Positions 45,500-61,144 of a DNA stretch of 64,000 nucleotides are shown here, piece after piece (the first letter of the stretch is position 1; each line of letters begins with the position of its first letter). The stretch lies in the sequence record OR352954; one strand, written 5' to 3'. The notes beneath the pieces were generated by a model. That model was given only the letters and a program-made list of their open reading frames with translations, made no database searches and was not told where the DNA came from. The DNA is from Escherichia phage AV124. Position numbers and translations under genes: made by a program.

Positions 45500-47047
45500 T
45501 TAGTTATCCAAGTTAGAGACAGAATTATCTCTTACTTTAGACGTCCCATTACCAGAAGTACCTTGCTTCATTCCATCACCGGAGCGACTGGTATCTTCCC
45601 CAAGGATCTTGAGTAGTTCCTCTTGAGATGTGTTTTCAGGAATCTCTTCATCAAACCCACCAACCTCAAGGATCTTATTGATAACTGTAGGTGTCTTCGG
45701 CAGATAACCAACAGCACCAATTCTCTGAACAAATTTGGAGAAGCTTTCCATATCAACTTCCTGGATAGCTCCAGGCTTAAGTCTCGGCATGTCTTCATCA
45801 GACAAACGGATATTATTAAGAGCGAGTAGTTGAGGAATCAAGTTCTTGTTGAATGATTCACAAATAATATCGATATCTCGTTGAACAAAATGCCCGTGGA
45901 TTGTTTGTTTTGATTCCGACAGGTTGTAAGACCCTTGACCATCATTCCCTAAGTTGATGAACCCCGCACCAAATCTGTCCAAGATCGCCTTCTTACGCTC
46001 TTGTATTAGATCCTTGGTACTATACTGTTTACCAACCCCATCGATTCCCTTAAGGGTCATCTTATACTGCTCACCGCCCTTATCATTCATATCTGAAGGT
46101 AAGATGAAGTAAGATTGTTCACCTGAGTGTGCGTTTGCAGCGTCAGCCATCAGACCACGAACCATATCTGCTTCAGGTGATCTCGGGTCCATAGACGCCT
46201 TATTCAGAATTGAAGAAGGGATCTTTAATTCAATGATACCACCGAGGTCCTTAGATGCCCCTATAACTTCAAGGTTTTCGATCAGGATTTTTTCACGGAA
46301 TGCACGGTAACAACCAACAAGAGGTGATACACCTGTAGGGTTTGATTCTGTCCCACCAAGAGACATTATCATCAACTTATTCACAGGGATGAATTTCTCA
46401 TCCGCACTTCCTGACAGATTTGTGACGAGACTCATAGCCCCAGCAATCTGGTTCATCCCGTTCTGAAAATTAGCAAAAGCCAGTGCGCTTTGATAAACAC
46501 CCGTAATTGTCCTTCCATCATCGCTGAAGACAAAAGGTTTTGTACGAGAGAGGCTTGACTGAGGACGGAAAGCAATTTTGTCGATCGTCATATAGCCTGC
46601 GTACTTAGATGGCGCGGATTCTGTTCTGTAGACCTTTTCGAATACAGAGAAACCATACTCGTTAAATGTCGCAGCACTTCTCGCCACATCGCGAAGCGTC
46701 TGTTGGTTAGCAAGATTCTTCAGAGCATACTCGACGAAATCTGCCGCTTTTTTAGACTCTTCACTATCTCGGTTGAAAAGAATTTTAAAATCATTGAAAG
46801 CCTTGGTGACAAAAACATATTTCGTATCCAGCGCTGTGGCAACAGTATGGTCTTGCTTCATGGAATCCACTGTTGCGAGGAACATAGGCCAGCGGAGTTC
46901 TTCAACCTTCATAATCTCAGATTCAGCACGAATCTGAGACAATGCTCCACTACCAAGTTCTCCAGTACGGACACGACTCACAGCAAGGTTTTCATTCCCT
47001 GCTTTTGCCACCGCATTCTTTCTTTTTCTGTTTCTGCGATTTGACAC
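45500..47047 (-). CDS. portal protein (515 aa), GTG start
   Basis: Size and position directly downstream of large terminase; GTG start preceded by RBS GAGGGGA. Confidence 0.55.
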   Translation of the reverse strand: MSNRRNRKRKNAVAKAGNENLAVSRVRTGELGSGALSQIRAESEIMKVEELRWPMFLATVDSMKQDHTVATALDTKYVFVTKAFNDFKILFNRDSEESKKAADFVEYALKNLANQQTLRDVARSAATFNEYGFSVFEKVYRTESAPSKYAGYMTIDKIAFRPQSSLSRTKPFVFSDDGRTITGVYQSALAFANFQNGMNQIAGAMSLVTNLSGSADEKFIPVNKLMIMSLGGTESNPTGVSPLVGCYRAFREKILIENLEVIGASKDLGGIIELKIPSSILNKASMDPRSPEADMVRGLMADAANAHSGEQSYFILPSDMNDKGGEQYKMTLKGIDGVGKQYSTKDLIQERKKAILDRFGAGFINLGNDGQGSYNLSESKQTIHGHFVQRDIDIICESFNKNLIPQLLALNNIRLSDEDMPRLKPGAIQEVDMESFSKFVQRIGAVGYLPKTPTVINKILEVGGFDEEIPENTSQEELLKILGEDTSRSGDGMKQGTSGNGTSKVRDNSVSNLDN

Positions 47048-47062
47048 GAGTCATCCCCTCTA

Positions 47063-48562
47063 TTATAATCGTGTATACATAGTCGGAGCAACAATCCTTG
47101 GGATTACGACAGGTCTGATGATCTCCGTTTTCTCCAGGAAGTTAATACCTGAAGAGATGGCGTCAACCCAATCGTCCTTACGGGACACGGTGCTTCGCTC
47201 GCCATTAAATTTCTCAAGCTCATTCATGAGGGCTTCATATGTCTTTGCATCAAAACTACTACGTACAATACGGACAAAGCCTTGCTGTGCAAGCTGGGCA
47301 AATGGTGCAAAACGAGTAAGTTTCGACTTGTTGCCTGGCGTAGGGTCTTTCTCAACCACATAACCATCCGCGAGCAATGCTCTTGAGCTGGTGAGGAATT
47401 CGCTTATACCAGCTTGGCCTGGGTCAACTGAGAAAATAATCGTTACATCATCGCCATCATGTTCTGCTTGTTTTTTGATAATTGCATCACGTTCGCCAGC
47501 CTTCTTACAGAAGCGGCCCTGCGTCCCGGTAGAATAAGGACCATCATCAACAAAATCTGGGTGATAGTCACCAGAAAGATAATAGAATCCCTCGGTATCT
47601 TTACTTACCTTGACCGATGCAGTAAAGTCAGGGAACTTGTTGCCTGTTGAGCGTTCAGTTCCCGCCTTGTCGTATGGTCTTACAGAAGTGCAGCCTAAAG
47701 GTAGCGTCGCGACTTCTTTCAAGAAAGACCTTTGGAAATAGTTTGCACCTTCTGGGCGAACCTTCCAGTTACCATACAACAGCTGTGCTTTTTCAACTTC
47801 AGGAAGACCTTCAAGAAATGCAAGATAATCTGGGTTGTTTTCCAGCATTGGCGGATTATCGAAAATTGTTGCGCTAATAAACGAGAAGGAGAGCGGCTTA
47901 GGCTTCTTGTGGATATCTTCACCATCCCAGTATCGTTCAATCAATTCTTCTGCGCTATCACCCCAAATGAAATCACCATCACGACGGATGAACCAACGGA
48001 TAACACCATCACGTTCTGGGATAGGATAACCATCCTCGTCGAGATACCAATCTATCAACTCTTTAATCTTATGATCAGGATCAGGGTTACAAGAGATGAC
48101 CATACGGCTTGGGTATTTAGATTCGGAACGTAAACGAGACATCAGATATTCGATCTGCGTCCATTCAAACTGTGTTCCTTCGTCAAACCCTACAAAAGTA
48201 TACTGAAGGCCCTGATGAGAAAGCTTGTCTTTCTCATATTCCATGTGCGACCATTTAACTTTTGCACCCGAAGGGAAGATAGCCTTCAGGTCTTTTTCTC
48301 GGAAGCGCGGCTTCCACTCAGGCGACAATTCACTATAGATACCACGAGCTGTTTCATACAAACCACCCGCACCGACAATCTGCGGTGTAAGTCTTCGGAA
48401 CATGATACAGTTTGAGCGAGGATCATCTATTAAGGCTAAGGGCATAAGTTGCAACAGGTAAGATTTACCTGATCCCGCAGCGCCCCCAATGATCAGGATT
48501 TGCGCCTTGTTTTCCAGGATCATTTTCTGCTTGGGGCTGGCGGGTCCAAAAGTGGTACTCAA
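47063..48562 (-). CDS. terminase large subunit, TTG start
   Basis: Walker A P-loop IIGGAAGSGKS near the N-terminus; TTG start with RBS GGAGGT. Confidence 0.8.
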   Translation of the reverse strand: MSTTFGPASPKQKMILENKAQILIIGGAAGSGKSYLLQLMPLALIDDPRSNCIMFRRLTPQIVGAGGLYETARGIYSELSPEWKPRFREKDLKAIFPSGAKVKWSHMEYEKDKLSHQGLQYTFVGFDEGTQFEWTQIEYLMSRLRSESKYPSRMVISCNPDPDHKIKELIDWYLDEDGYPIPERDGVIRWFIRRDGDFIWGDSAEELIERYWDGEDIHKKPKPLSFSFISATIFDNPPMLENNPDYLAFLEGLPEVEKAQLLYGNWKVRPEGANYFQRSFLKEVATLPLGCTSVRPYDKAGTERSTGNKFPDFTASVKVSKDTEGFYYLSGDYHPDFVDDGPYSTGTQGRFCKKAGERDAIIKKQAEHDGDDVTIIFSVDPGQAGISEFLTSSRALLADGYVVEKDPTPGNKSKLTRFAPFAQLAQQGFVRIVRSSFDAKTYEALMNELEKFNGERSTVSRKDDWVDAISSGINFLEKTEIIRPVVIPRIVAPTMYTRL

Positions 48563-50829: not shown

Positions 50830-50864
50830 GTACCAGAAAAAGAAAAGCCCCGCAAGAGCGGGGC
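50830..50864 (-). terminator. rho-independent terminator between tRNA array and nucleotidyltransferase gene
   Basis: On the minus strand: hairpin GCCCCGC-TCTT-GCGGGGC followed by TTTTCTTTTTCT. Confidence 0.55.
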
Positions 50865-50908
50865 GAGGCAAAGGAGAGGAGATATAATAATTTATTGTTA
50901 TTAGAATT

Positions 50909-50984
50909 TGGTTGCGAGCAGCGGAATCGAACCCCTCTGAACAAGCTTATGAGACTCGTGAATTCACCAGAATTCTAGCTCGCA
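50909..50984 (-). tRNA. tRNA-Met/Ile2 (anticodon CAT)
   Basis: Cloverleaf read by eye: acceptor TGCGAGC/GCTCGCA, D-arm GAAT-TCTGGTGA-ATTC, anticodon stem CGAGT/GCTTG with wobble pairs, loop CTCATAA, T-loop TTCGATT; CCA encoded. Confidence 0.7.
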
Positions 50985-50990
50985 ATTGTT

Positions 50991-51067
50991 TGGCGGGACG
51001 GGGTGGATTCGAACCACCGACACCATGATCTTCAATCAAGTGCTCTACCAAACTGAGCTACCGACCC
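50991..51067 (-). tRNA. tRNA-Phe (GAA)
   Basis: D-arm GCTC-AGTTTGGTA-GAGC, anticodon loop TTGAAGA, T-arm GGTGG-TTCGAAT-CCACC; CCA encoded. Confidence 0.75.
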
Positions 51068-51073
51068 GATGTG

Positions 51074-51158
51074 TGGTGGGCAAGGAGAGACTCGAACTCT
51101 CACGTCATAGGACGCCAGAACCTAAATCTGGTGCGTCTACCAATTTCGCCACTTGCCC
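51074..51158 (-). tRNA. tRNA-Leu (TAG)
   Basis: Anticodon arm CCAGA-TTTAGGT-TCTGG, long variable arm, T-loop TTCGAGT; CCA encoded. Confidence 0.75.
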
Positions 51159-51403
51159 TAATCGATCCTTCGGGAGAATGCCACCCTCGGACAAATACCA
51201 TGATAAGCACTTATAGGCAATATACTCATCAATCCTCGCTCCGTTTTGATATCGTTACCGCCACAAGGACGCATTGCGAACCATCAATATCCGAAGACTC
51301 GCCTTATCGTTGTACACCGAGTCGGGCTTCCTCTTTATTAGTTTGCTCTGTTACGCCACACGTAAATCCTGCAAGCCAGAAGGTCTCTACAGGAGAGCAA
51401 ATA

Positions 51404-51476
51404 TGGTGTGGATGGAAGGACTCGAACCTACATCAAACGGCTTCGTAGACCGTTGCCTGTCCGTCAGGACACCCAC
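51404..51476 (-). tRNA. tRNA-Arg (ACG)
   Basis: Anticodon arm ACGGT-CTACGAA-GCCGT, T-loop TTCGAGT, acceptor GTGGGTG/CATCCAC; CCA encoded. Confidence 0.75.
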
Positions 51477-51482
51477 ATAATT

Positions 51483-51559
51483 TGGTCTCCATAGAGTGAC
51501 TCGAACACTCAACCTCCTGGTCCCAAACCAGGCGCTCTACACTATTGAGCTACACGGAG
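51483..51559 (-). tRNA. tRNA-Pro (TGG)
   Basis: D-arm GCTC-AATAGTGTA-GAGC, anticodon arm CCTGG-TTTGGGA-CCAGG, T-arm GAGTG-TTCGAGT-CACTC; CCA encoded. Confidence 0.8.
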
Positions 51560-51657
51560 AGAAGTGCAGAATTTTAATTATCCCAGACACTGCAACTGGT
51601 ATTGCTGGCTAGCTAATAAGTTCTCCAAGCAAAGTTTTAATTTGCAAGGAGGATGTT

Positions 51658-51734
51658 TGGCGGGACCGAAGGGAATCGAACCCTCATTTTCCGCATCGAC
51701 AGTGCGGCACCATTACCTTGTCAGCCACGGCCCC
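51658..51734 (-). tRNA. tRNA-Asp (GTC)
   Basis: Anticodon arm CCGCA-CTGTCGA-TGCGG, T-loop TTCGATT, acceptor GGGGCCG/CGGTCCC; CCA encoded. Confidence 0.8.
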
Positions 51735-51741
51735 ATAAATT

Positions 51742-51826
51742 TGGCGACGAGCGTAGGAATTGAACCTACATAGAGCTAATGCTCGCGGATTAACAGTCCG
51801 CCGTTCTACCAATGAACCAGCTCGTC
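51742..51826 (-). tRNA. tRNA-Asn (GTT) with enlarged variable region
   Basis: D-arm GTTC-ATTGGTA-GAAC and anticodon arm GCGGA-CTGTTAA-TCCGC; variable region is 15 nt with a GAGC-ATTA-GCTC mini-hairpin; CCA encoded. Confidence 0.65.
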
Positions 51827-51886
51827 ATTTAAATACTTTATCAGTGAAAACAACCTTTTGCAAGAATTATTTTAACTGATTTAATT

Positions 51887-51962
51887 TGGCGGGAAGGGAA
51901 GGATTTTAACCCATCGTCTCTTCGCTTAAAAAGCGAATGCCTGACCGCTCGGCTACCTACCC
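51887..51962 (-). tRNA. tRNA-Lys (TTT)
   Basis: Anticodon arm TTCGC-TTTTTAA-GCGAA, T-loop TTAAAAT; acceptor has one mismatch; CCA encoded. Confidence 0.65.
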
Positions 51963-51970
51963 ATATTGTT

Positions 51971-52059
51971 TGGAGGAGAGCAACAGAATCGAACTGTCAC
52001 CGTATCTCTACGGTGGGACCGGGTTCAAACCGGAGCCTGCACCATGCAGCCTGCTCTCC
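51971..52059 (-). tRNA. tRNA-Ser (TGA)
   Basis: Anticodon arm CCGG-TTTGAAC-CCGG, long variable arm, T-loop TTCGATT; CCA encoded. Confidence 0.7.
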
Positions 52060-52064
52060 AAAAT

Positions 52065-52150
52065 TGGCGGAAGATGCAAGGGTTGAACTTGCACACCCTT
52101 TCGGATGGCGGTTTAGCAAACCGCTGTGGCTACCATTTCACCAATCTTCC
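52065..52150 (-). tRNA. tRNA-Ser (GCT)
   Basis: Anticodon arm GCGGT-TTGCTAA-ACCGC, long variable arm, T-arm GCAAG-TTCAACC-CTTGC; CCA encoded. Confidence 0.75.
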
Positions 52151-52296
52151 AATTGTTCTTTAATTTCTTTACGAAGATCTGCTTTTTCTTTCGCACGAGT
52201 AATAGGGACTGATTGAATCTCTTCTGCAACACCACAGTTACTACCGTGAAGTCTACAGCGTCCAAACACTTTCTTGCAACGCAAAAGTTTCTGCAT
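52138..52296 (-). CDS. small Cys-containing protein inside the tRNA array (52 aa)
   Basis: Start at internal ATG 52296 (MQKLLRCKKVFGRCRLHGSNCGV...) with RBS GGAGG at 4-nt spacing; three Cys in 13 residues; the 3-prime end of the frame runs into the adjacent tRNA-Ser. Confidence 0.35.
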   Translation of the reverse strand: MQKLLRCKKVFGRCRLHGSNCGVAEEIQSVPITRAKEKADLRKEIKEQLEDW

Positions 52297-52311
52297 AAAT
52301 CCTCCATAAAG

Positions 52312-52401
52312 TGGCGGAGAAGGAGAGAATTGAACTCTCAAGCCGTTTTACCAGTCAGCACCTTTCCAAGGTGTTTTCGTCACCTATCGATTTGCTTCTC
52401 C
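52312..52401 (-). tRNA. atypical type-II tRNA, possibly tRNA-Ser (GGA)
   Basis: Acceptor GGAGAAG/CTTCTCC and T-arm GAGAG-TTCAATT-CTCTC are clear; candidate anticodon arm ACACC-TTGGAAA-GGTGC; D-arm irregular; 90 nt; CCA encoded. Confidence 0.45.
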
Positions 52402-52405
52402 ATAT

Positions 52406-52482
52406 TGGGGTGGCTAGTGGGACTCGAACCCACATAGGACTGCCTCACAAGCAGTGTCATTATCCAGTTATGATATAGCCAC
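52406..52482 (-). tRNA. tRNA-His (GTG)
   Basis: Anticodon arm ACTGC-TTGTGAG-GCAGT, T-arm GTGGG-TTCGAGT-CCCAC; CCA encoded. Confidence 0.7.
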
Positions 52483-52554
52483 ATCAAAAGGCACTCCCAG
52501 CTTTCGGGTGAATTTCAAGAGCGGCTGCGCAACCACTTGAAGTACCTTTTGATA

Positions 52555-52630
52555 TGGCAGGAAGATCAGGACTTGAACCTGAACTACGGATTTCAAAGAC
52601 CCGTGTGCTAACCAATTACACCATCTTCCT
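52555..52630 (-). tRNA. tRNA-Gln (TTG)
   Basis: Anticodon arm CGGGT-CTTTGAA-ATCCG, T-loop TTCAAGT, D-arm GTGT-AATTGGTTAG-CACA; CCA encoded. Confidence 0.75.
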
Positions 52631-52785
52631 ATAATCGGTGAGGGCGCCTGAAACCGAGCCAGGCTAAGTATTGGACTGCAATCCTCAACTTATTTTGTTG
52701 CCGCCATGCTTACTTATGACCGACAAGAGTTCCCGTTGCAGCGGTAGATCATAGTCATTTTCAACATCCGGTCGCCCCCATTATT

Positions 52786-52859
52786 TGGAGCGTCTAGAGG
52801 GAATCGAACCCTACTCTGCGAGGCTTGGAAGGCCTGCGACACACCTCGTGCTTAGACGC
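52786..52859 (-). tRNA. tRNA-Trp (CCA)
   Basis: Anticodon arm AGGCC-TTCCAAG-GGCCT, T-loop TTCGATT; CCA encoded. Confidence 0.7.
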
Positions 52860-52866
52860 TTTAAAT

Positions 52867-52941
52867 TGGTGGGAGTATCTGGGATCGAACCAGAGACCTC
52901 TCGATTATCGGTCGAGCGTTCTACCGCTGAACTATACTCCC
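52867..52941 (-). tRNA. tRNA-Ile (GAT)
   Basis: D-arm GTTC-AGCGGTA-GAAC, anticodon arm CTCGA-CCGATAA-TCGAG, T-arm TCTGG-TTCGATC-CCAGA; CCA encoded. Confidence 0.8.
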
Positions 52942-53074
52942 ATTAATTGGTGCGCCCCTTTATAAAAATGTCTTCAAGCGGAGTCTTTATTGAAACAATA
53001 AATTTACTCACTCACCTAATCTTATTTTTACTCAGATGGACGTCTTTAGCGGAGCGTCCTCCACCTTCTTCGTT

Positions 53075-53161
53075 TGGTACGCCGTGATAGAGTCGAACTA
53101 CCCGAGCCTTTTGAGCAACAGATTTACAGTCTGTCCCGCTACCCCTACGGTCTAACGGCGC
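53075..53161 (-). tRNA. tRNA-Tyr (GTA)
   Basis: Anticodon arm ACAGA-CTGTAAA-TCTGT, long variable arm, T-loop TTCGACT; CCA encoded. Confidence 0.7.
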
Positions 53162-53163
53162 AT

Positions 53164-53514
53164 TTAGCCTTGTTTGAACTGAACAATATCTGTTGTGAAT
53201 GGCTTACTCATAGGAGTAGATTTCTTATCATCAACATTAGTTGTTTCAGCTTCTTCATTCTCTTCATCGAAGTAATCAGAAAGCATTTGTTCACCTTTCT
53301 CAATTACAAATCGAGCAATATTTTCCCTGATGTTGTCCTTTGTTGTGGCGCTTGTCATAAGGTCTTTTAGCACTTTATGAGCATCAGGAATCATAGCAAT
53401 CATATTGGTCTTAAGGTCAAGGATATTCTTCTCAAGCTGAATAGCATTAGACTCTTCTTTAAGGGGTCTACCTTTTCCTCTACGACGCTTTGTAAGTTGT
53501 TGTTTTACTGCCAT
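53164..53514 (-). CDS. hypothetical acidic protein inside the tRNA array (116 aa)
   Basis: ORF with ATG start; Lys/Glu-rich. Confidence 0.5.
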   Translation of the reverse strand: MAVKQQLTKRRRGKGRPLKEESNAIQLEKNILDLKTNMIAMIPDAHKVLKDLMTSATTKDNIRENIARFVIEKGEQMLSDYFDEENEEAETTNVDDKKSTPMSKPFTTDIVQFKQG

Positions 53515-53599
53515 AATAACCCCACTTATTAATATTATCAGATTTAAATTTATCTGTCAAGGGTCATTTTATCATTTTTTATAAAAATATTCAACAACT

Positions 53600-53789: not shown

Positions 53790-53871
53790 TGGCGAAGGCG
53801 GCAGGATTCGAACCCGCATACTCCAATTACTCGATTAACGACGGGTTAGAAGCCCGTTGAGATACGCCCTC
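53790..53871 (-). tRNA. atypical tRNA-like gene (anticodon-like loop TCT, no recognisable D-arm)
   Basis: Acceptor GAGGGCG/CGCCTTC and T-arm GCGGG-TTCGAAT-CCTGC are clear; only one further hairpin ACGGG-CTTCTAA-CCCGT, followed by a 23-nt unpaired region; CCA encoded. Confidence 0.4.
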
Positions 53872-54259: not shown

Positions 54260-54334
54260 TGGCTTCTCGAACAGGAATCGAACCTGTACCGTCCCTATCG
54301 TGGGACCGCTCTAACCAAAGTAAGCTATCGAGAA
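54260..54334 (-). tRNA. tRNA-like gene with 6-nt anticodon-position loop
   Basis: Acceptor TTCTCGA/TCGAGAA, D-arm GCTT-ACTTTGGTTA-GAGC, T-arm ACAGG-TTCGATT-CCTGT; stem GTCCC/GGGAC closes loop ACGATA; CCA encoded. Confidence 0.5.
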
Positions 54335-57186: not shown

Positions 57187-57264
57187 TTGGTGACCCCCGG
57201 AGGATTCGAACCTACCTACCTCTCGATTATGAGTCGATTGCTCATACCTTATGAGCTTGAGGGC
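57187..57264 (-). tRNA. tRNA-Met/Ile2 (CAT)
   Basis: Anticodon loop CTCATAA, T-loop TTCGAAT, acceptor GGCCCTC/GGGGGTC with wobble pairs; CCA encoded. Confidence 0.65.
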
Positions 57265-57267
57265 CTT

Positions 57268-57340
57268 ATCGTTCAGAGTGGACTTGAACCACTGACCTTA
57301 TCCGTATGAAGAACATGCTCTACCAACTAAGCTACTGAAC
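57268..57340 (-). tRNA. tRNA-Met/Ile2 (CAT), no encoded CCA
   Basis: Acceptor CGTTCAG/CTGAACG, D-arm GCTT-AGTTGGTA-GAGC, anticodon arm TGTTC-TTCATAC-GGATA, T-arm AGTGG-TTCAAGT-CCACT; 3-prime end lacks CCA. Confidence 0.65.
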
Positions 57341-57365
57341 GGTTGTACTGTTGATGTGGTAGATA

Positions 57366-58605: not shown

Positions 58606-60282
58606 TTACAGTTGAGCGGCTGCGCGTTCACGAATCGTTGTCAGGTCTTCATCGACAATCAATTTACCGTTGTAGAACACACGACGCAGTTCATTATCTT
58701 CAGACTGTACTTCTTCCAGTTGGCAATTGTCAATCAGTTCTAACTGACCGAACATGTTGCGAACAACTTTGAGGAAGCCTTTCGCAGATTTCTTACTGAG
58801 GTCGGTCTTAGGCTCTTTGACAACCATGATCTGCTGACCATCAATCACAGCACCAGTTGCCTTCACAGCCATGCCCAGTGAATCGCGGGTTGTATACTGA
58901 GTGGTGAAAGAACCGACGCCGTAAACAATGTTGCTGGATGCGAAGCCTTTTTCTTTCAGACGTTCAAAGATGTCTTTTGCACGAGCAACAGTGATTGAGT
59001 CACCGTAGATCAGACCAACGTGGGTGTCGAGGACCTTGTAACCTTTGGAGTTAACTTCACCACCAAAGATCTCCCACAGGCACTGAATTGCACCAATTGC
59101 CTCATGACGAGTAATCTCTTTATCGTCATCATCTGTCTGTGACAGAAGAACATAACGGTCGGTGTCTTTGAAGTATGCAACTTCTGTCTTCAGTGCGAAG
59201 GAACCTTTGTTATAGAAACCGTCTTCTGTTTCGAATTCTTCAATTCGATAACCAGCAATGATATGTTCAGGAATGCCGGAGTCAGGACGGAAAACAACAC
59301 GACCATCACGTGCCATGATTTCCTGTTTCAGGATCGCTGCTGCTTTGGTGATAATAGCCCAGAAATCATAGCTGTCTGCTACGTAGGAAACAAAACCTTT
59401 CGGGAAAATTTCCGTGATATAGCGTTTCAGGAACTCAACTTCAGCCAGAAAACGTTTCTGGTCGAGGCTCATAAACTCTTGTGTTACAGTATTCTCTTCG
59501 ATTTCTTTTACAATAAATCCGATGTTCGTGGTTGCAACAGAGTGTTCAGATGCAGGAATAGAACCAGCAACGAACTTGCCTTTCATGTTGTAATAACGAC
59601 GAGCATACAGAATCGCTGGGATAGTGTCTGTACCCATAGAGTTGATCAGTTGACCGAATTCGCTCTGTGCTGCGTCGTGAGTACCAGCTTCACCGCGATA
59701 TGCGAAGCAGTGGTTCTGGAATGCAACATGGTCGTTGTTATCACAGGTCGCAGCAGCCCATTTTTCGGACAGCTTGCGATACTGCCAGAACGTCGTTGCA
59801 GTTGTGATAGTTTTCCAAGTTTCTGCGGAGATCACACTTTCCAAGAAGTTAGGCAACCAGTAAAAATCCGGGTGCGTATTCTGGATTGTAAACATTGGGA
59901 TCTGAACCGGAGAAAGCGTTCCTTCTGGAAGAGCACGGATTTCCAGAGGAAGATAACCGAGATCATGAAGAGCCTCAAAGCCCCAGGTTTCTACCATGCC
60001 AATGCCGATGCTGGAGTCGCAAACCTCACGATAATCAGCAACCGCTACTTCTTTCGGGAGGTTGAAGAAGTTATTGTTGAACATGTCGATAAGGAACCAC
60101 TTAATAAATCCCTGAAGGCCAGCAAACATGACACGCTGGTCGTTATCAGCGAAGTGAATGAAGTGCTTCGCGTTACGAGGGGTCATGTTATCCTGAACAA
60201 TTTCAGAACGTTTATCATACATGGAGATGTGTGAAGGTTTGTAAAAGTCAGCGAACAGGATAGGACTTTCTTGATTAAGCAT
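58606..60282 (-). CDS. nadV: nicotinamide phosphoribosyltransferase (Nampt)
   Basis: Start at ATG 60282 with RBS AAGGAGAAA; N-terminal LFADFYKPSH resembles the Nampt signature (LLATDSYKVTH in the human enzyme); size about 558 aa; adjacent to prs. Confidence 0.75.
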   Translation of the reverse strand: MLNQESPILFADFYKPSHISMYDKRSEIVQDNMTPRNAKHFIHFADNDQRVMFAGLQGFIKWFLIDMFNNNFFNLPKEVAVADYREVCDSSIGIGMVETWGFEALHDLGYLPLEIRALPEGTLSPVQIPMFTIQNTHPDFYWLPNFLESVISAETWKTITTATTFWQYRKLSEKWAAATCDNNDHVAFQNHCFAYRGEAGTHDAAQSEFGQLINSMGTDTIPAILYARRYYNMKGKFVAGSIPASEHSVATTNIGFIVKEIEENTVTQEFMSLDQKRFLAEVEFLKRYITEIFPKGFVSYVADSYDFWAIITKAAAILKQEIMARDGRVVFRPDSGIPEHIIAGYRIEEFETEDGFYNKGSFALKTEVAYFKDTDRYVLLSQTDDDDKEITRHEAIGAIQCLWEIFGGEVNSKGYKVLDTHVGLIYGDSITVARAKDIFERLKEKGFASSNIVYGVGSFTTQYTTRDSLGMAVKATGAVIDGQQIMVVKEPKTDLSKKSAKGFLKVVRNMFGQLELIDNCQLEEVQSEDNELRRVFYNGKLIVDEDLTTIRERAAAQL

Positions 60283-60343
60283 GTTTTGTTTCTCCTTTGT
60301 TTGTTTAATAGGGCGATTGTACGCCCACTTATTCATTTGTCAA

Positions 60344-61144
60344 TTAAAAGTTTTCGGTCCAGTCGTGGTACGCATAGATTTCATCAACGCCGCCTTCGTA
60401 GATAACTTCTTTGCCGAAGGAAAAGATACCGTGTGTTACGTAAAGAATAACACGTTTTGCACCTTTTGCCTTCAATGCTTGTGCCAGGGCAATGAATGTG
60501 CGACCACCATCGCAGATATCATCGACAATAACACACTCGCGACCTTCAACATCACCGAAAACAGCAGTCCCGGTAATTTCATTTGTCTTCAGATCGCGCA
60601 CTTTTCCAGCTTCCACCAGAGGGAGGCGGAGACGATCGGAAACTTTCTGAGCTTTTTTACGTGCTCCGGCGTCAGGTGCCACGATAACAACATCTTTTCC
60701 AACCAGGCCTTCATGGAATTTCGCAATAAGAGCATCCTGACCACGAATTTTAACGTTGTTAAGTAGTGCTGCGGAGACATCGCTGTGCGGATCATCGACA
60801 ATTATCTTATCAAACCCAAGAGAGTTGACGATATTTGCGAAAACTTTGATGGATAACGCTTCACCAGGTTGCATTACGCGGTCCTGACGTGCATATGGAA
60901 TATATGGCAAGTGCAAAGTAAATTGTGCAGTATGATGGAGACCTTCAAGGCGAGAACATGCATCCACCAACATGGCAAGTGCCATAACATCAGTAGAATT
61001 TTTAATTTTCGCAGTGATGTCTACGAAACCAATACCACCTTTTGGGGTATGCGTCATGTCAATTTTAACCTGTTCTTCACCACCTTTGAACGTAAAGTGA
61101 TCAACAGGAACTACCAGTTTGTTCAGACGAAGTTCTAAACTCAT
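60344..61144 (-). CDS. prs: ribose-phosphate pyrophosphokinase (PRPP synthetase)
   Basis: Type I phosphoribosyltransferase PRPP-binding motif VIVDDICDGGRT plus upstream VIVAPDAGA. Confidence 0.8.
   Translation of the reverse strand: MSLELRLNKLVVPVDHFTFKGGEEQVKIDMTHTPKGGIGFVDITAKIKNSTDVMALAMLVDACSRLEGLHHTAQFTLHLPYIPYARQDRVMQPGEALSIKVFANIVNSLGFDKIIVDDPHSDVSAALLNNVKIRGQDALIAKFHEGLVGKDVVIVAPDAGARKKAQKVSDRLRLPLVEAGKVRDLKTNEITGTAVFGDVEGRECVIVDDICDGGRTFIALAQALKAKGAKRVILYVTHGIFSFGKEVIYEGGVDEIYAYHDWTENF

Follow-up and report, generated by a model that had tools for sequence, protein, structure and literature searches.

By the textbook account, a long variable arm in bacterial and phage transfer RNAs (tRNAs) is found only on those for leucine, serine, tyrosine and selenocysteine. 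Among the closest described systems to the gene reported here are phage tRNAs that stand in for host tRNAs destroyed by defence nucleases. The PARIS nuclease AriB cuts host tRNA-Asn on the 3' strand of the anticodon stem, between nucleotides 40 and 41 (U36AAUC/C41), and the Lys, Thr and Asn tRNAs of phage T5 jointly neutralise PARIS (PMC12409363). In an AlphaFold 3 model a second AriB monomer touches U16-U17 of the D loop, and the change U16C impairs cleavage (PMC12409363). Septu and the PtuAB of Retron-Eco7 cleave tRNA-Tyr within its variable loop, and phage tRNA-Tyr needs its longer variable loop to defeat Retron-Eco7 (PMC12673091, PMC13096335). Here we analyse a 64,000-nucleotide stretch of Escherichia phage AV124 (sequence record OR352954; the whole stretch is called the window), which carries a tRNA-Asn(GUU) gene with an extra hairpin in its variable region. 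The gene belongs to a covarying, nearly phage-confined family of Asn tRNAs that breaks the textbook rule on long arms and has members in at least four unrelated phage lineages.

Results

A tRNA-Asn gene with a fifth helix

The coordinates 51742..51826 (minus strand) are exactly those at which ARAGORN called a tRNA-Asn(gtt), and the whole gene, 85 nt with the 3' CCA encoded, was also recovered by the Rfam tRNA model and as a minimum free energy (MFE) cloverleaf. Read 5' to 3' on the minus strand, to which all coordinates of this paragraph refer, the 5' acceptor strand GACGAGC (51820..51826) pairs fully with GCUCGUC at 51746-51752, the first pair being G1-C72. The dinucleotide UG is followed by a D arm of class I type, GUUC-AUUGGUA-GAAC (51803..51817), with a 4-bp stem and a 7-nt loop, as read from the sequence and the comparison with E. 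coli. A single G precedes the anticodon arm GCGGA-CUGUUAA-UCCGC (51785..51801), delimited by sequence and by alignment to E. coli; the anticodon GUU (51792..51794; ARAGORN and sequence) corresponds to codons AAC and AAU. The variable region occupies 15 nt (51770..51784) and contains the extra arm, in which a 4-bp stem made of GAGC (51781-51784) and GCUC (51773-51776) carries the 4-nt loop AUUA (51777-51780) and is followed by a 3-nt 3' linker, UAU (51770-51772). The T arm GUAGG-UUCAAUU-CCUAC (51753..51769; sequence and fold) leads into the 3' acceptor strand, the discriminator G73 (51745), which is an invariant column in an alignment of 16 homologues, and CCA. All stems are perfectly paired, with a 7-bp acceptor and a 5-bp T stem.

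The extra arm was recognised from the sequence, the MFE fold, the Rfam insertion and compensatory changes. The gene scored 61.7 bits with Rfam RF00005 against a gathering threshold of 29. All 71 model positions were aligned, and 12 nt in the variable region, 'agcauuagcucu', were set aside as an insertion in an otherwise complete cloverleaf. The MFE structure of the 85-mer adds a fifth hairpin, GAGC/GCUC, to the cloverleaf, has a free energy of -34.2 kcal/mol and makes up 64% of the ensemble (z = -4.3); not one of 200 shuffles matched its folding energy. A preliminary description of the locus had read it as a tRNA-Asn with a 10-nt variable-loop insertion forming this hairpin, and had proposed covariance-model scoring and structure prediction as checks. 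Both bear the reading out, and ARAGORN, the alignment to E. coli and the covariation described below agree with them.

Comparison with E. coli tRNA-Asn and identity elements

Positions 10-41 of the gene were 93.9% identical to tRNA-Asn genes in 5,425 of 5,426 complete E. coli genomes searched by BLAST, with a median of four matching places per genome; no match covering at least 80% of the gene was found in any of the 5,426. The D and anticodon arms, described earlier as nearly those of E. coli tRNA-Asn, are thus ~94% identical over this range. Direct alignment to a K-12 tRNA-Asn gene placed 15 nt opposite AUGUC, a clean 10-nt surplus, in keeping with the earlier count of 15 nt rather than 5 in the variable region. 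The phage gene shares with E. coli tRNA-Asn (asnT/U/V/W) the anticodon GUU, G73, the loop CUGUUAA and the D stem GUUC/GAAC, and presumably decodes the same codons; the anticodon stem differs in the last pair only (G27-C43 in the phage, G27-U43 in E. coli). In contrast, the acceptor and T stems are unrelated to those of the E. coli tRNA, U1-A72 and A9 are replaced by G1-C72 and G9, and the D loop is one nucleotide shorter and lacks G15.

The anticodon GUU and G73 reportedly define Asn identity for E. coli asparaginyl-tRNA synthetase (AsnRS), as worked out by Li, Pelka and Schulman in 1993. This identity set is present in the window gene and invariant across the 16 aligned homologues. The U1-A72 pair, which is typical of bacterial tRNA-Asn and required for the GatCAB route, is absent from the window gene and retained in several long-arm relatives, including genes of the Micromonosporaceae arrays described below. 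Enterobacteria charge tRNA-Asn via AsnRS, so U1-A72 is dispensable in such a host. As in class II tRNAs, the variable region exceeds 10 nt and is paired (15 nt, 4-bp stem, covariation). The gene nevertheless falls outside the Leu, Ser, Tyr and Sec families, having GUU and D and anticodon arms of tRNA-Asn type, and its 4-bp D stem and 7-nt D loop differ from the 3-bp stem and enlarged loop of class II. Judged from its identity elements, the window gene is a member of tRNA-Asn with a class II structural feature.

Derivation from the phage's own tRNA-Ser(GCU) or tRNA-Tyr by one anticodon change was considered and rejected, the D and anticodon arms being far closer to host tRNA-Asn. The gene has G73, U8-G9 and a 15-nt arm in common with the tRNA-Ser(GCU) of the phage. 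Relatives that have class II-type D arms may have such an origin from tRNA-Ser or tRNA-Tyr.

The extra helix is conserved and covaries

Copies at least 99% identical to the gene were found in 21 phage records, and among the matches listed the identity reached 100% in Klebsiella and Raoultella phages. Ninety records matched at least 80% of the gene length, variable arm included. The arm varies in sequence and keeps its pairing: it reads GAGC-AUUA-GCUC in the window and in FENT2, GAGC-GAAA-GCUC in Erwinia phage Hena1, GAGU-GAAA-ACUC in Salmonella phage PVP-SE1 and GUUC-GAAA-GAAC in phAPEC8 and ESCO13 (Stephanstirmvirinae), and stems GUCG/CGAC, GAGA/UCUC and GGAU/AUCC were seen on viral contigs.

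Covariation was measured in an alignment of 16 distinct homologues with a five-helix structure. Pairs were standard in 97.7% of cells compared with 71.7% in shuffles; none of 500 shuffles reached the observed value, and pairing fell to 35-51% when the partners were slid by 1-3 columns. The extra helix was paired in 96.8% of cells, and three of its four pairs changed on both sides (variants AU/UA/GC; GC/CG/UA/AU; CG/AU/GC/UA), the first pair being G-C in 14 of the 16 homologues. All seven acceptor pairs covaried as well. The pair 13:22 was non-standard in 7/16 homologues; some relatives have a 3-bp class II-type D stem, and some combine class II-like D arms with acceptor stems starting GG. Since the inserted helix covaries, the variable arm is kept in the RNA. 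The extra hairpin is under selection and is held by compensatory substitutions across diverse phages.

The arm is capped by a GNRA tetraloop in 22 of 33 distinct members by script, and in up to 29 of 33 when read in an alternative register. Loop sequences across the family comprise AUUA, GAAA, GUAA, GCAA and triloops, and the AUUA of the window is a derived exception to GNRA. A covariance model of the family ranked the long-arm tRNA-Asn first (66-105 bits), but every other tRNA matched it too, so it adds nothing past the ARAGORN list.

Long-arm tRNA-Asn is widespread in phages and nearly absent from cells

We scanned IMG/VR, and one genome each of 185,579 bacterial and archaeal species, for an Asn anticodon arm followed by a long variable region. 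Among 29 matching IMG/VR loci, 28 encode a tRNA(GUU) that is 82-89 nt long and forms a 3-5 bp hairpin in the variable region; one locus, L025, had a 73-nt tRNA-Asn only. Long-arm genes were found in Vequintavirinae, Stephanstirmvirinae, T4-like Aeromonas phages (~172 kb, 44RR2.8t type), the 305-kb Pseudomonas jumbo phage Psa21 and uncultured viral contigs, and also on a 411-kb viral contig; some of the contigs (L006, L026) have no sequenced phage relative. The version of the pattern with a variable loop of normal length matched at least 120 loci in IMG/VR, which indicates that ordinary tRNA-Asn is also common in phages.

The long-arm pattern occurred at seven places in the bacterial and archaeal genomes. 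Three are true bacterial cases, from Micromonospora and Verrucosispora (Micromonosporaceae): tRNA-Asn genes of 90 nt whose arm has 6 bp. They belong to arrays of 29-35 tRNA genes in ~4-5.4 kb (L154:797-6206, L155:1531-5503, L157:2815-7960), an architecture that is in our judgement typical of mobile tRNA arrays. Two matches in Thermoproteales (L156, L158) are 94 nt long with an insert that lacks the hairpin, and are probably best read as tRNAs holding non-canonical introns, a reading for which no other match is a candidate. The other two are not tRNA-Asn: one is a tRNA-like sequence without a D arm and one is no tRNA. A 68-nt sequence in a Chloroflexia metagenome-assembled genome (L159:7392-7459, plus strand) has an Asn anticodon arm, a 12-nt variable region, a T arm, an acceptor stem and ACCA, and no D arm.

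Long-arm tRNA-Asn is thus a widespread, almost phage-restricted family and goes beyond a one-off insertion. GenBank records already annotate such genes as tRNA-Asn. We found no description of a phage tRNA-Asn with a variable arm, or of other class I phage tRNAs with one, in the literature searched, which left subscription journals mostly uncovered; term look-ups in PMC10264068 (eLife 2023) and PMC12482277 (the Sf14 tRNA study) returned no variable-arm phage tRNA-Asn.

Turnover at the tRNA-Asn site

The region around the gene is 92-98% identical to Klebsiella phage vB_KpnM_KB57 (genus Mydovirus) and its relatives, and the window phage is assigned to the lytic Klebsiella myoviruses of Vequintavirinae, Mydovirus KB57 type. 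At the syntenic site, Proteus phage Mydo, which like KB57 is a Mydovirus, carries a tRNA-Asn of ordinary length, 75 nt (L163:1427-1501, minus strand). In PVP-SE1 (L162:1672-1756, minus) and GAP31 (L164:1706-1794, minus), two phages of one genus, the long-arm tRNA-Asn genes found there are unrelated to each other; that of GAP31 is 89 nt long, with the arm GGGA-GCAA-UCCC and a class II-like D arm. Long-arm tRNA-Asn has been repeatedly acquired or retained at one locus, and the site is dynamic in Vequintavirinae.

Extra helices on other phage tRNAs

Beside phage tRNA-Asn genes we collected 713 distinct class I tRNAs of other specificities, of which 25 are at least 81 nt long. By type, this length is reached by Ile(UAU) in 6/10, Thr(UGU) in 5/45 and Met in 5/76. 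It is more frequent in tRNAs that decode ANN codons (17/266) than in others (8/447; Fisher p = 0.0024, with small counts and non-independent sequences). The host-like sequence UAAUCA is present in 4/5 long-arm Thr(UGU) tRNAs and in 8/43 of normal length (Fisher p = 0.011, from few, non-independent sequences).

Variable-arm hairpins on these other class I tRNAs are often GNRA-capped, and some Met, Gln and Glu tRNAs are included. Examples are an 87-nt tRNA-Trp(CCA) with GGGG-AAA-CCCC in Hena1-type Erwinia phages (L002:1449-1535, L014:4387-4473, L027:8187-8273), tRNA-Thr(UGU) of 82-87 nt (L037, L089, L121, L132, L146) and tRNA-Ile(UAU) of 91-95 nt (L038, L089, L106, L116, L146, L151). The tRNA-Lys(UUU) of Seunavirus (FENT2, PVP-SE1, GAP31), 84-87 nt long, has a hairpin of ~10 nt, GAC-GUAU-GUC, in the D loop and not in the variable loop. 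These three genes (FENT2, L001:2745-2828, plus; PVP-SE1, L162:1818-1903, minus; GAP31, L164:1964-2050, minus) rest on GenBank annotation and have no ARAGORN call. The D loop is one of two proposed AriB contact sites (PMC12409363).

The tRNA cluster and its neighbours

ARAGORN placed at least 21 tRNA genes in a cluster on the minus strand at ~50.9-57.3 kb, with the gene at 51742..51826 as the sole tRNA-Asn in the window. The tRNA map and consensus matches suggest a putative polycistronic tRNA unit that includes it (50847..53560, minus). The unit would run from a promoter-like site, TTGACA-17-TAATAT with TG (53560-53532, minus), to a strong terminator-like hairpin of seven G-C pairs followed by a T run (50864-50847, minus), both recognised by consensus match only. 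Its gene order is Tyr-Ile-Gln-His-Ser-Ser-Ser-Lys-Asn-Asp-Pro-Arg-Leu-Phe-Met, and tRNA-Asp lies 7 nt downstream of tRNA-Asn.

Several other members of the cluster are unusual. The tRNA-Lys(UUU) at 51887-51962 (minus) is of normal length and scores 50.5 bits in Rfam, and has an aberrant T arm with the loop UUAAAAU (C56 to A) and mismatches in the T stem. A tRNA(CAU) at 57191-57265 (minus; Rfam 42.3 bits, no ARAGORN call) lies directly downstream of tRNA-Met (57269-57341). The tRNA-like sequence at 53793-53871 (minus) was likewise not called by ARAGORN and is marginal in Rfam (34.9 bits); it has a good acceptor stem and T arm, a 3-bp anticodon stem with the loop CUUCUAA (UCU, Arg), a defective D arm and a spacer of ~25 nt ahead of the T arm. 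At 54260-54334 (minus) a tRNA-like gene with intact acceptor and T arms and an encoded CCA has a 6-nt anticodon loop (GUCCC-ACGAUA-GGGAC), and ARAGORN reported it as tRNA-??? with a two-base anticodon.

A Pfam scan of the ten open reading frames (ORFs) neighbouring the cluster found no tRNA enzyme, only NAD-salvage, terminase and portal genes and unknowns. Upstream of the cluster, a gene of the NAPRTase family (nicotinamide/nicotinate phosphoribosyltransferase; 58606-60336, minus; Pfam E = 1e-28) and a ribose-phosphate pyrophosphokinase-like gene (60344-61144, minus) make up a phage NAD-salvage module. The large terminase subunit (47063-48562) and the portal protein (45500-47047) are encoded downstream.

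Discussion

A probable working tRNA-Asn and a possible role for its arm

The gene is very probably a translating tRNA-Asn made from a polycistronic precursor, since GUU and G73 are invariant, the D and anticodon arms are host-like, CCA is encoded and the gene lies inside a tRNA unit. Trimming of the precursor would fall to host RNase P and 3' processing, and charging, through G34-U35-U36 and G73, to host AsnRS; the tRNA would read AAC and AAU. The reading that we favour, tentatively and as nearly an even call, is that of a working elongator tRNA-Asn of a phage-borne lineage whose short variable-region hairpin shields it from nucleases. Asn decoding would then continue while host tRNA-Asn is destroyed. 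The part of this reading that concerns the arm, namely that because of it the phage tRNA-Asn is cleaved poorly by the host's tRNA-directed defence nucleases, is possible, if short of probable. The preliminary description had suggested, with due caution, that the arm could affect recognition by the synthetase or sensitivity to nucleases. Among enterobacteria the documented case of such a nuclease is AriB, the effector of PARIS.

The gene is a phage copy of a nuclease-cleaved isoacceptor, tRNA-Asn(GUU) being a reported AriB target (PMC12409363). Base changes at the cut site or around it are absent: nucleotides 36-41 read UAAUCC, the unchanged host cleavage sequence, and the differences lie in the adjacent extra helix and the D loop. 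The helix begins at nucleotide 44, three nucleotides from the AriB scissile bond, and reasoning from tRNA geometry suggests that it would obstruct an AriB dimer spanning both contacts. The corresponding sites of the tRNA-Lys(UUU) and the tRNA-Thr(UGU) of the window, UAAGCG (host UAAUCA) and UAAGGA, are both changed from the host site, and T5 tRNA-Asn has a normal variable loop and a changed stem, UAAGUU. The role of the variable loop in deciding the nuclease sensitivity of tRNA-Tyr provides a precedent for an arm that acts as a shield. The D-loop hairpin on Seunavirus tRNA-Lys(UUU), the excess of long arms on ANN decoders and the host-like site kept by most long-arm Thr(UGU) tRNAs point in this direction too, the counts being small and the sequences non-independent. 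It is conceivable, though doubtful, that extra helices on phage tRNAs are a general and so far unrecognised counter-defence strategy, covering the variable-arm hairpins on Asn(GUU), Thr(UGU), Ile(UAU) and Met(CAU) as well as the D-loop hairpin on Seunavirus Lys(UUU). A small GNRA-capped helix would sterically shield ANN-decoding (U36-A37) tRNAs from anticodon-stem/loop nucleases such as PARIS AriB; it would spare the synthetase identity elements and replace mutation of the nuclease recognition sequence.

Several observations weigh against such protection. Covariation implies that the helix, once there, must remain a helix, and is no proof that the arm is advantageous. U39 is present in 63% of phage tRNA-Asn with a normal variable loop and in 69% of those with a long one, and because the host-like site is about as common in the normal form it is not specific to the arm. 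FENT2 and PVP-SE1 carry both the arm and a U39G change. Class II synthetases, AsnRS among them, come up to the tRNA on the side of its variable loop; an arm that keeps a nuclease away might therefore impair charging too. Like hairpins occur on phage tRNA-Trp, Gln, Glu and Phe, none a known AriB target, which points to a more general role of the arm. The geometry of the AriB-tRNA complex is an AlphaFold 3 model, and tRNA-Asn is only a secondary AriB target for which the preference is weak (PMC12409363).

Alternative explanations

A serious candidate, if not a probable one, is that the arm is a legacy or structural feature without a specific partner, the 10-nt insertion having arisen once in a phage tRNA-Asn and spread with tRNA cassettes. 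The helix would then be kept because an unpaired insertion is harmful, or because a GNRA hairpin helps an under-modified, rapidly made tRNA to fold or survive. The swap of normal and long tRNA-Asn at one locus in one genus (Mydo versus KB57) fits this account, both forms evidently being functional, and the recurrence of a module of 3-5 bp plus GNRA on Trp, Gln, Glu, Thr and Met tRNAs suggests something generic and structural; the AUUA of the window in place of GNRA indicates that no particular loop sequence is needed. Less easily accommodated are the near-absence of the arm from 185,579 cellular genomes, its recurrence in phages of at least four unrelated lineages, the unrelated long-arm genes at the same locus in PVP-SE1 and GAP31, and the enrichment of long arms on ANN decoders (17/266 versus 8/447, p = 0.0024, the sequences being non-independent). 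Together, these make selection linked to the phage lifestyle the easier explanation. We regard it as improbable that the arm serves as a handle or decoy, bound by a tRNA-modifying or processing factor of phage or host or by a defence nuclease of the PtuAB/Septu type that recognises long arms. In the decoy version, a GUU tRNA with a Tyr-like arm would titrate or inhibit the nuclease and not merely escape it. The arm, with 0-1 nt on its 5' side, 3-4 bp and a 3-nt 3' linker, is indeed closer to that of phage tRNA-Tyr (3 bp, 3-nt linker) than to that of phage tRNA-Ser(GCU) (5 bp, 1-nt linker), and GUU is one base from the Tyr anticodon GUA. Cleavage of the tRNA-Tyr variable loop by Septu and Retron-Eco7, and the need for that loop in phage tRNA-Tyr against Retron-Eco7, also speak for such an interaction, and possible competition by phage tRNAs was suggested by the authors of the AriB study (PMC12409363). 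No partner protein or tRNA enzyme was found among the scanned ORFs around the cluster, however, and the unconserved loop (AUUA, GAAA, GUAA, GCAA, triloops) argues against sequence-specific recognition.

That the arm shifts or splits the identity of the tRNA, making it a substrate of seryl-tRNA synthetase (SerRS) so that AAC and AAU are partly read as Ser, is very unlikely. Parallels for Ser recoding exist in Candida tRNA-Ser(CAG) and in nematode variable-arm tRNAs. The variable region of the phage tRNA-Ser(GCU) is likewise 15 nt long, a single transition separates GUU from the Ser anticodon GCU, some relatives have class II-like D arms and acceptor stems starting GG, and SerRS, which reads the long arm and G73, is indifferent to the anticodon (PMC7609411). 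Against this, the AsnRS identity set does not vary, the gene and host tRNA-Asn are ~94% identical in the D and anticodon arms, several relatives keep the U1-A72 typical of tRNA-Asn, and the geometry, a 3-4 bp stem with a Tyr-like 3-nt linker, is not Ser-like. The gene is moreover the sole tRNA-Asn that ARAGORN found in the 64-kb window, and a proteome-wide change from Asn to Ser would be costly. The window gene also lacks G2-C71 and C11-G24, which belong to the identity set of E. coli tRNA-Ser. To read the gene as a pseudogene, as intron-containing or as an assembly error is hardly credible, even with degenerate tRNA-like sequences in the same cluster (54260-54334, 53793-53871). Perfect stems, a high model score and covariation rule out a pseudogene. 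The copies at least 99% identical in 21 phage records rule out a sequencing or assembly artefact, so that the insertion withstands the doubt, raised in the preliminary description, that a sequencing correction might remove it. An intron was rejected as well, the insert being a plain 4-bp variable-region hairpin with covarying pairs and without a bulge-helix-bulge motif. To our knowledge bacteria have no splicing endonuclease; group I introns are far larger and are located in the anticodon loop.

Significance and comparison with known systems

The structure and distribution of long-arm tRNA-Asn are solid, and both are unexpected for a specialist. If the arm protects against immune nucleases that cut tRNAs, it would add a structural escape route to the known anticodon-arm point mutations and would help to explain the tRNA choice of large phages. 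The gene also provides a natural case of a class I tRNA in which a variable-arm hairpin is presumably tolerated, a matter of relevance to the engineering of tagged or orthogonal tRNAs.

Among known systems, the anti-defence tRNAs are those of T5 (Lys, Thr and Asn) directed against PARIS AriB and the tRNA-Tyr of T5 and SP15 directed against Retron-Eco7 PtuAB. The window gene resembles them in being a phage copy of a destroyed isoacceptor and in departing from the host tRNA close to the cleavage site, and in anti-defence tRNA-Tyr the variable loop is likewise the decisive element (PMC12409363, PMC12673091, PMC11555353). T5 tRNA-Asn escapes through base changes in the anticodon stem, whereas the window gene has a host-like stem and an added helix, and its resistance is putative. 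With the class II tRNAs (Leu, Ser, Tyr, Sec) it shares a variable region of more than 10 nt with a stem-loop, in size and 3' linker most like that of tRNA-Tyr; it differs from them in its Asn specificity, its class I D arm with a 4-bp stem and 7-nt loop, and the shortness of its 4-bp arm. A class I-family anticodon combined with a long variable arm is also found in the nematode nev-tRNAs, which are eukaryotic and charged by leucyl-tRNA synthetase, and in the allo-tRNAs. Because its acceptor/T architecture is 7/5, the window gene is not an allo-tRNA; allo-tRNAs (Mukai et al., PMC5389517) have 8/4 or 9/3 architecture and Ser or Ala identity, in contrast to the Asn identity set of the window gene.

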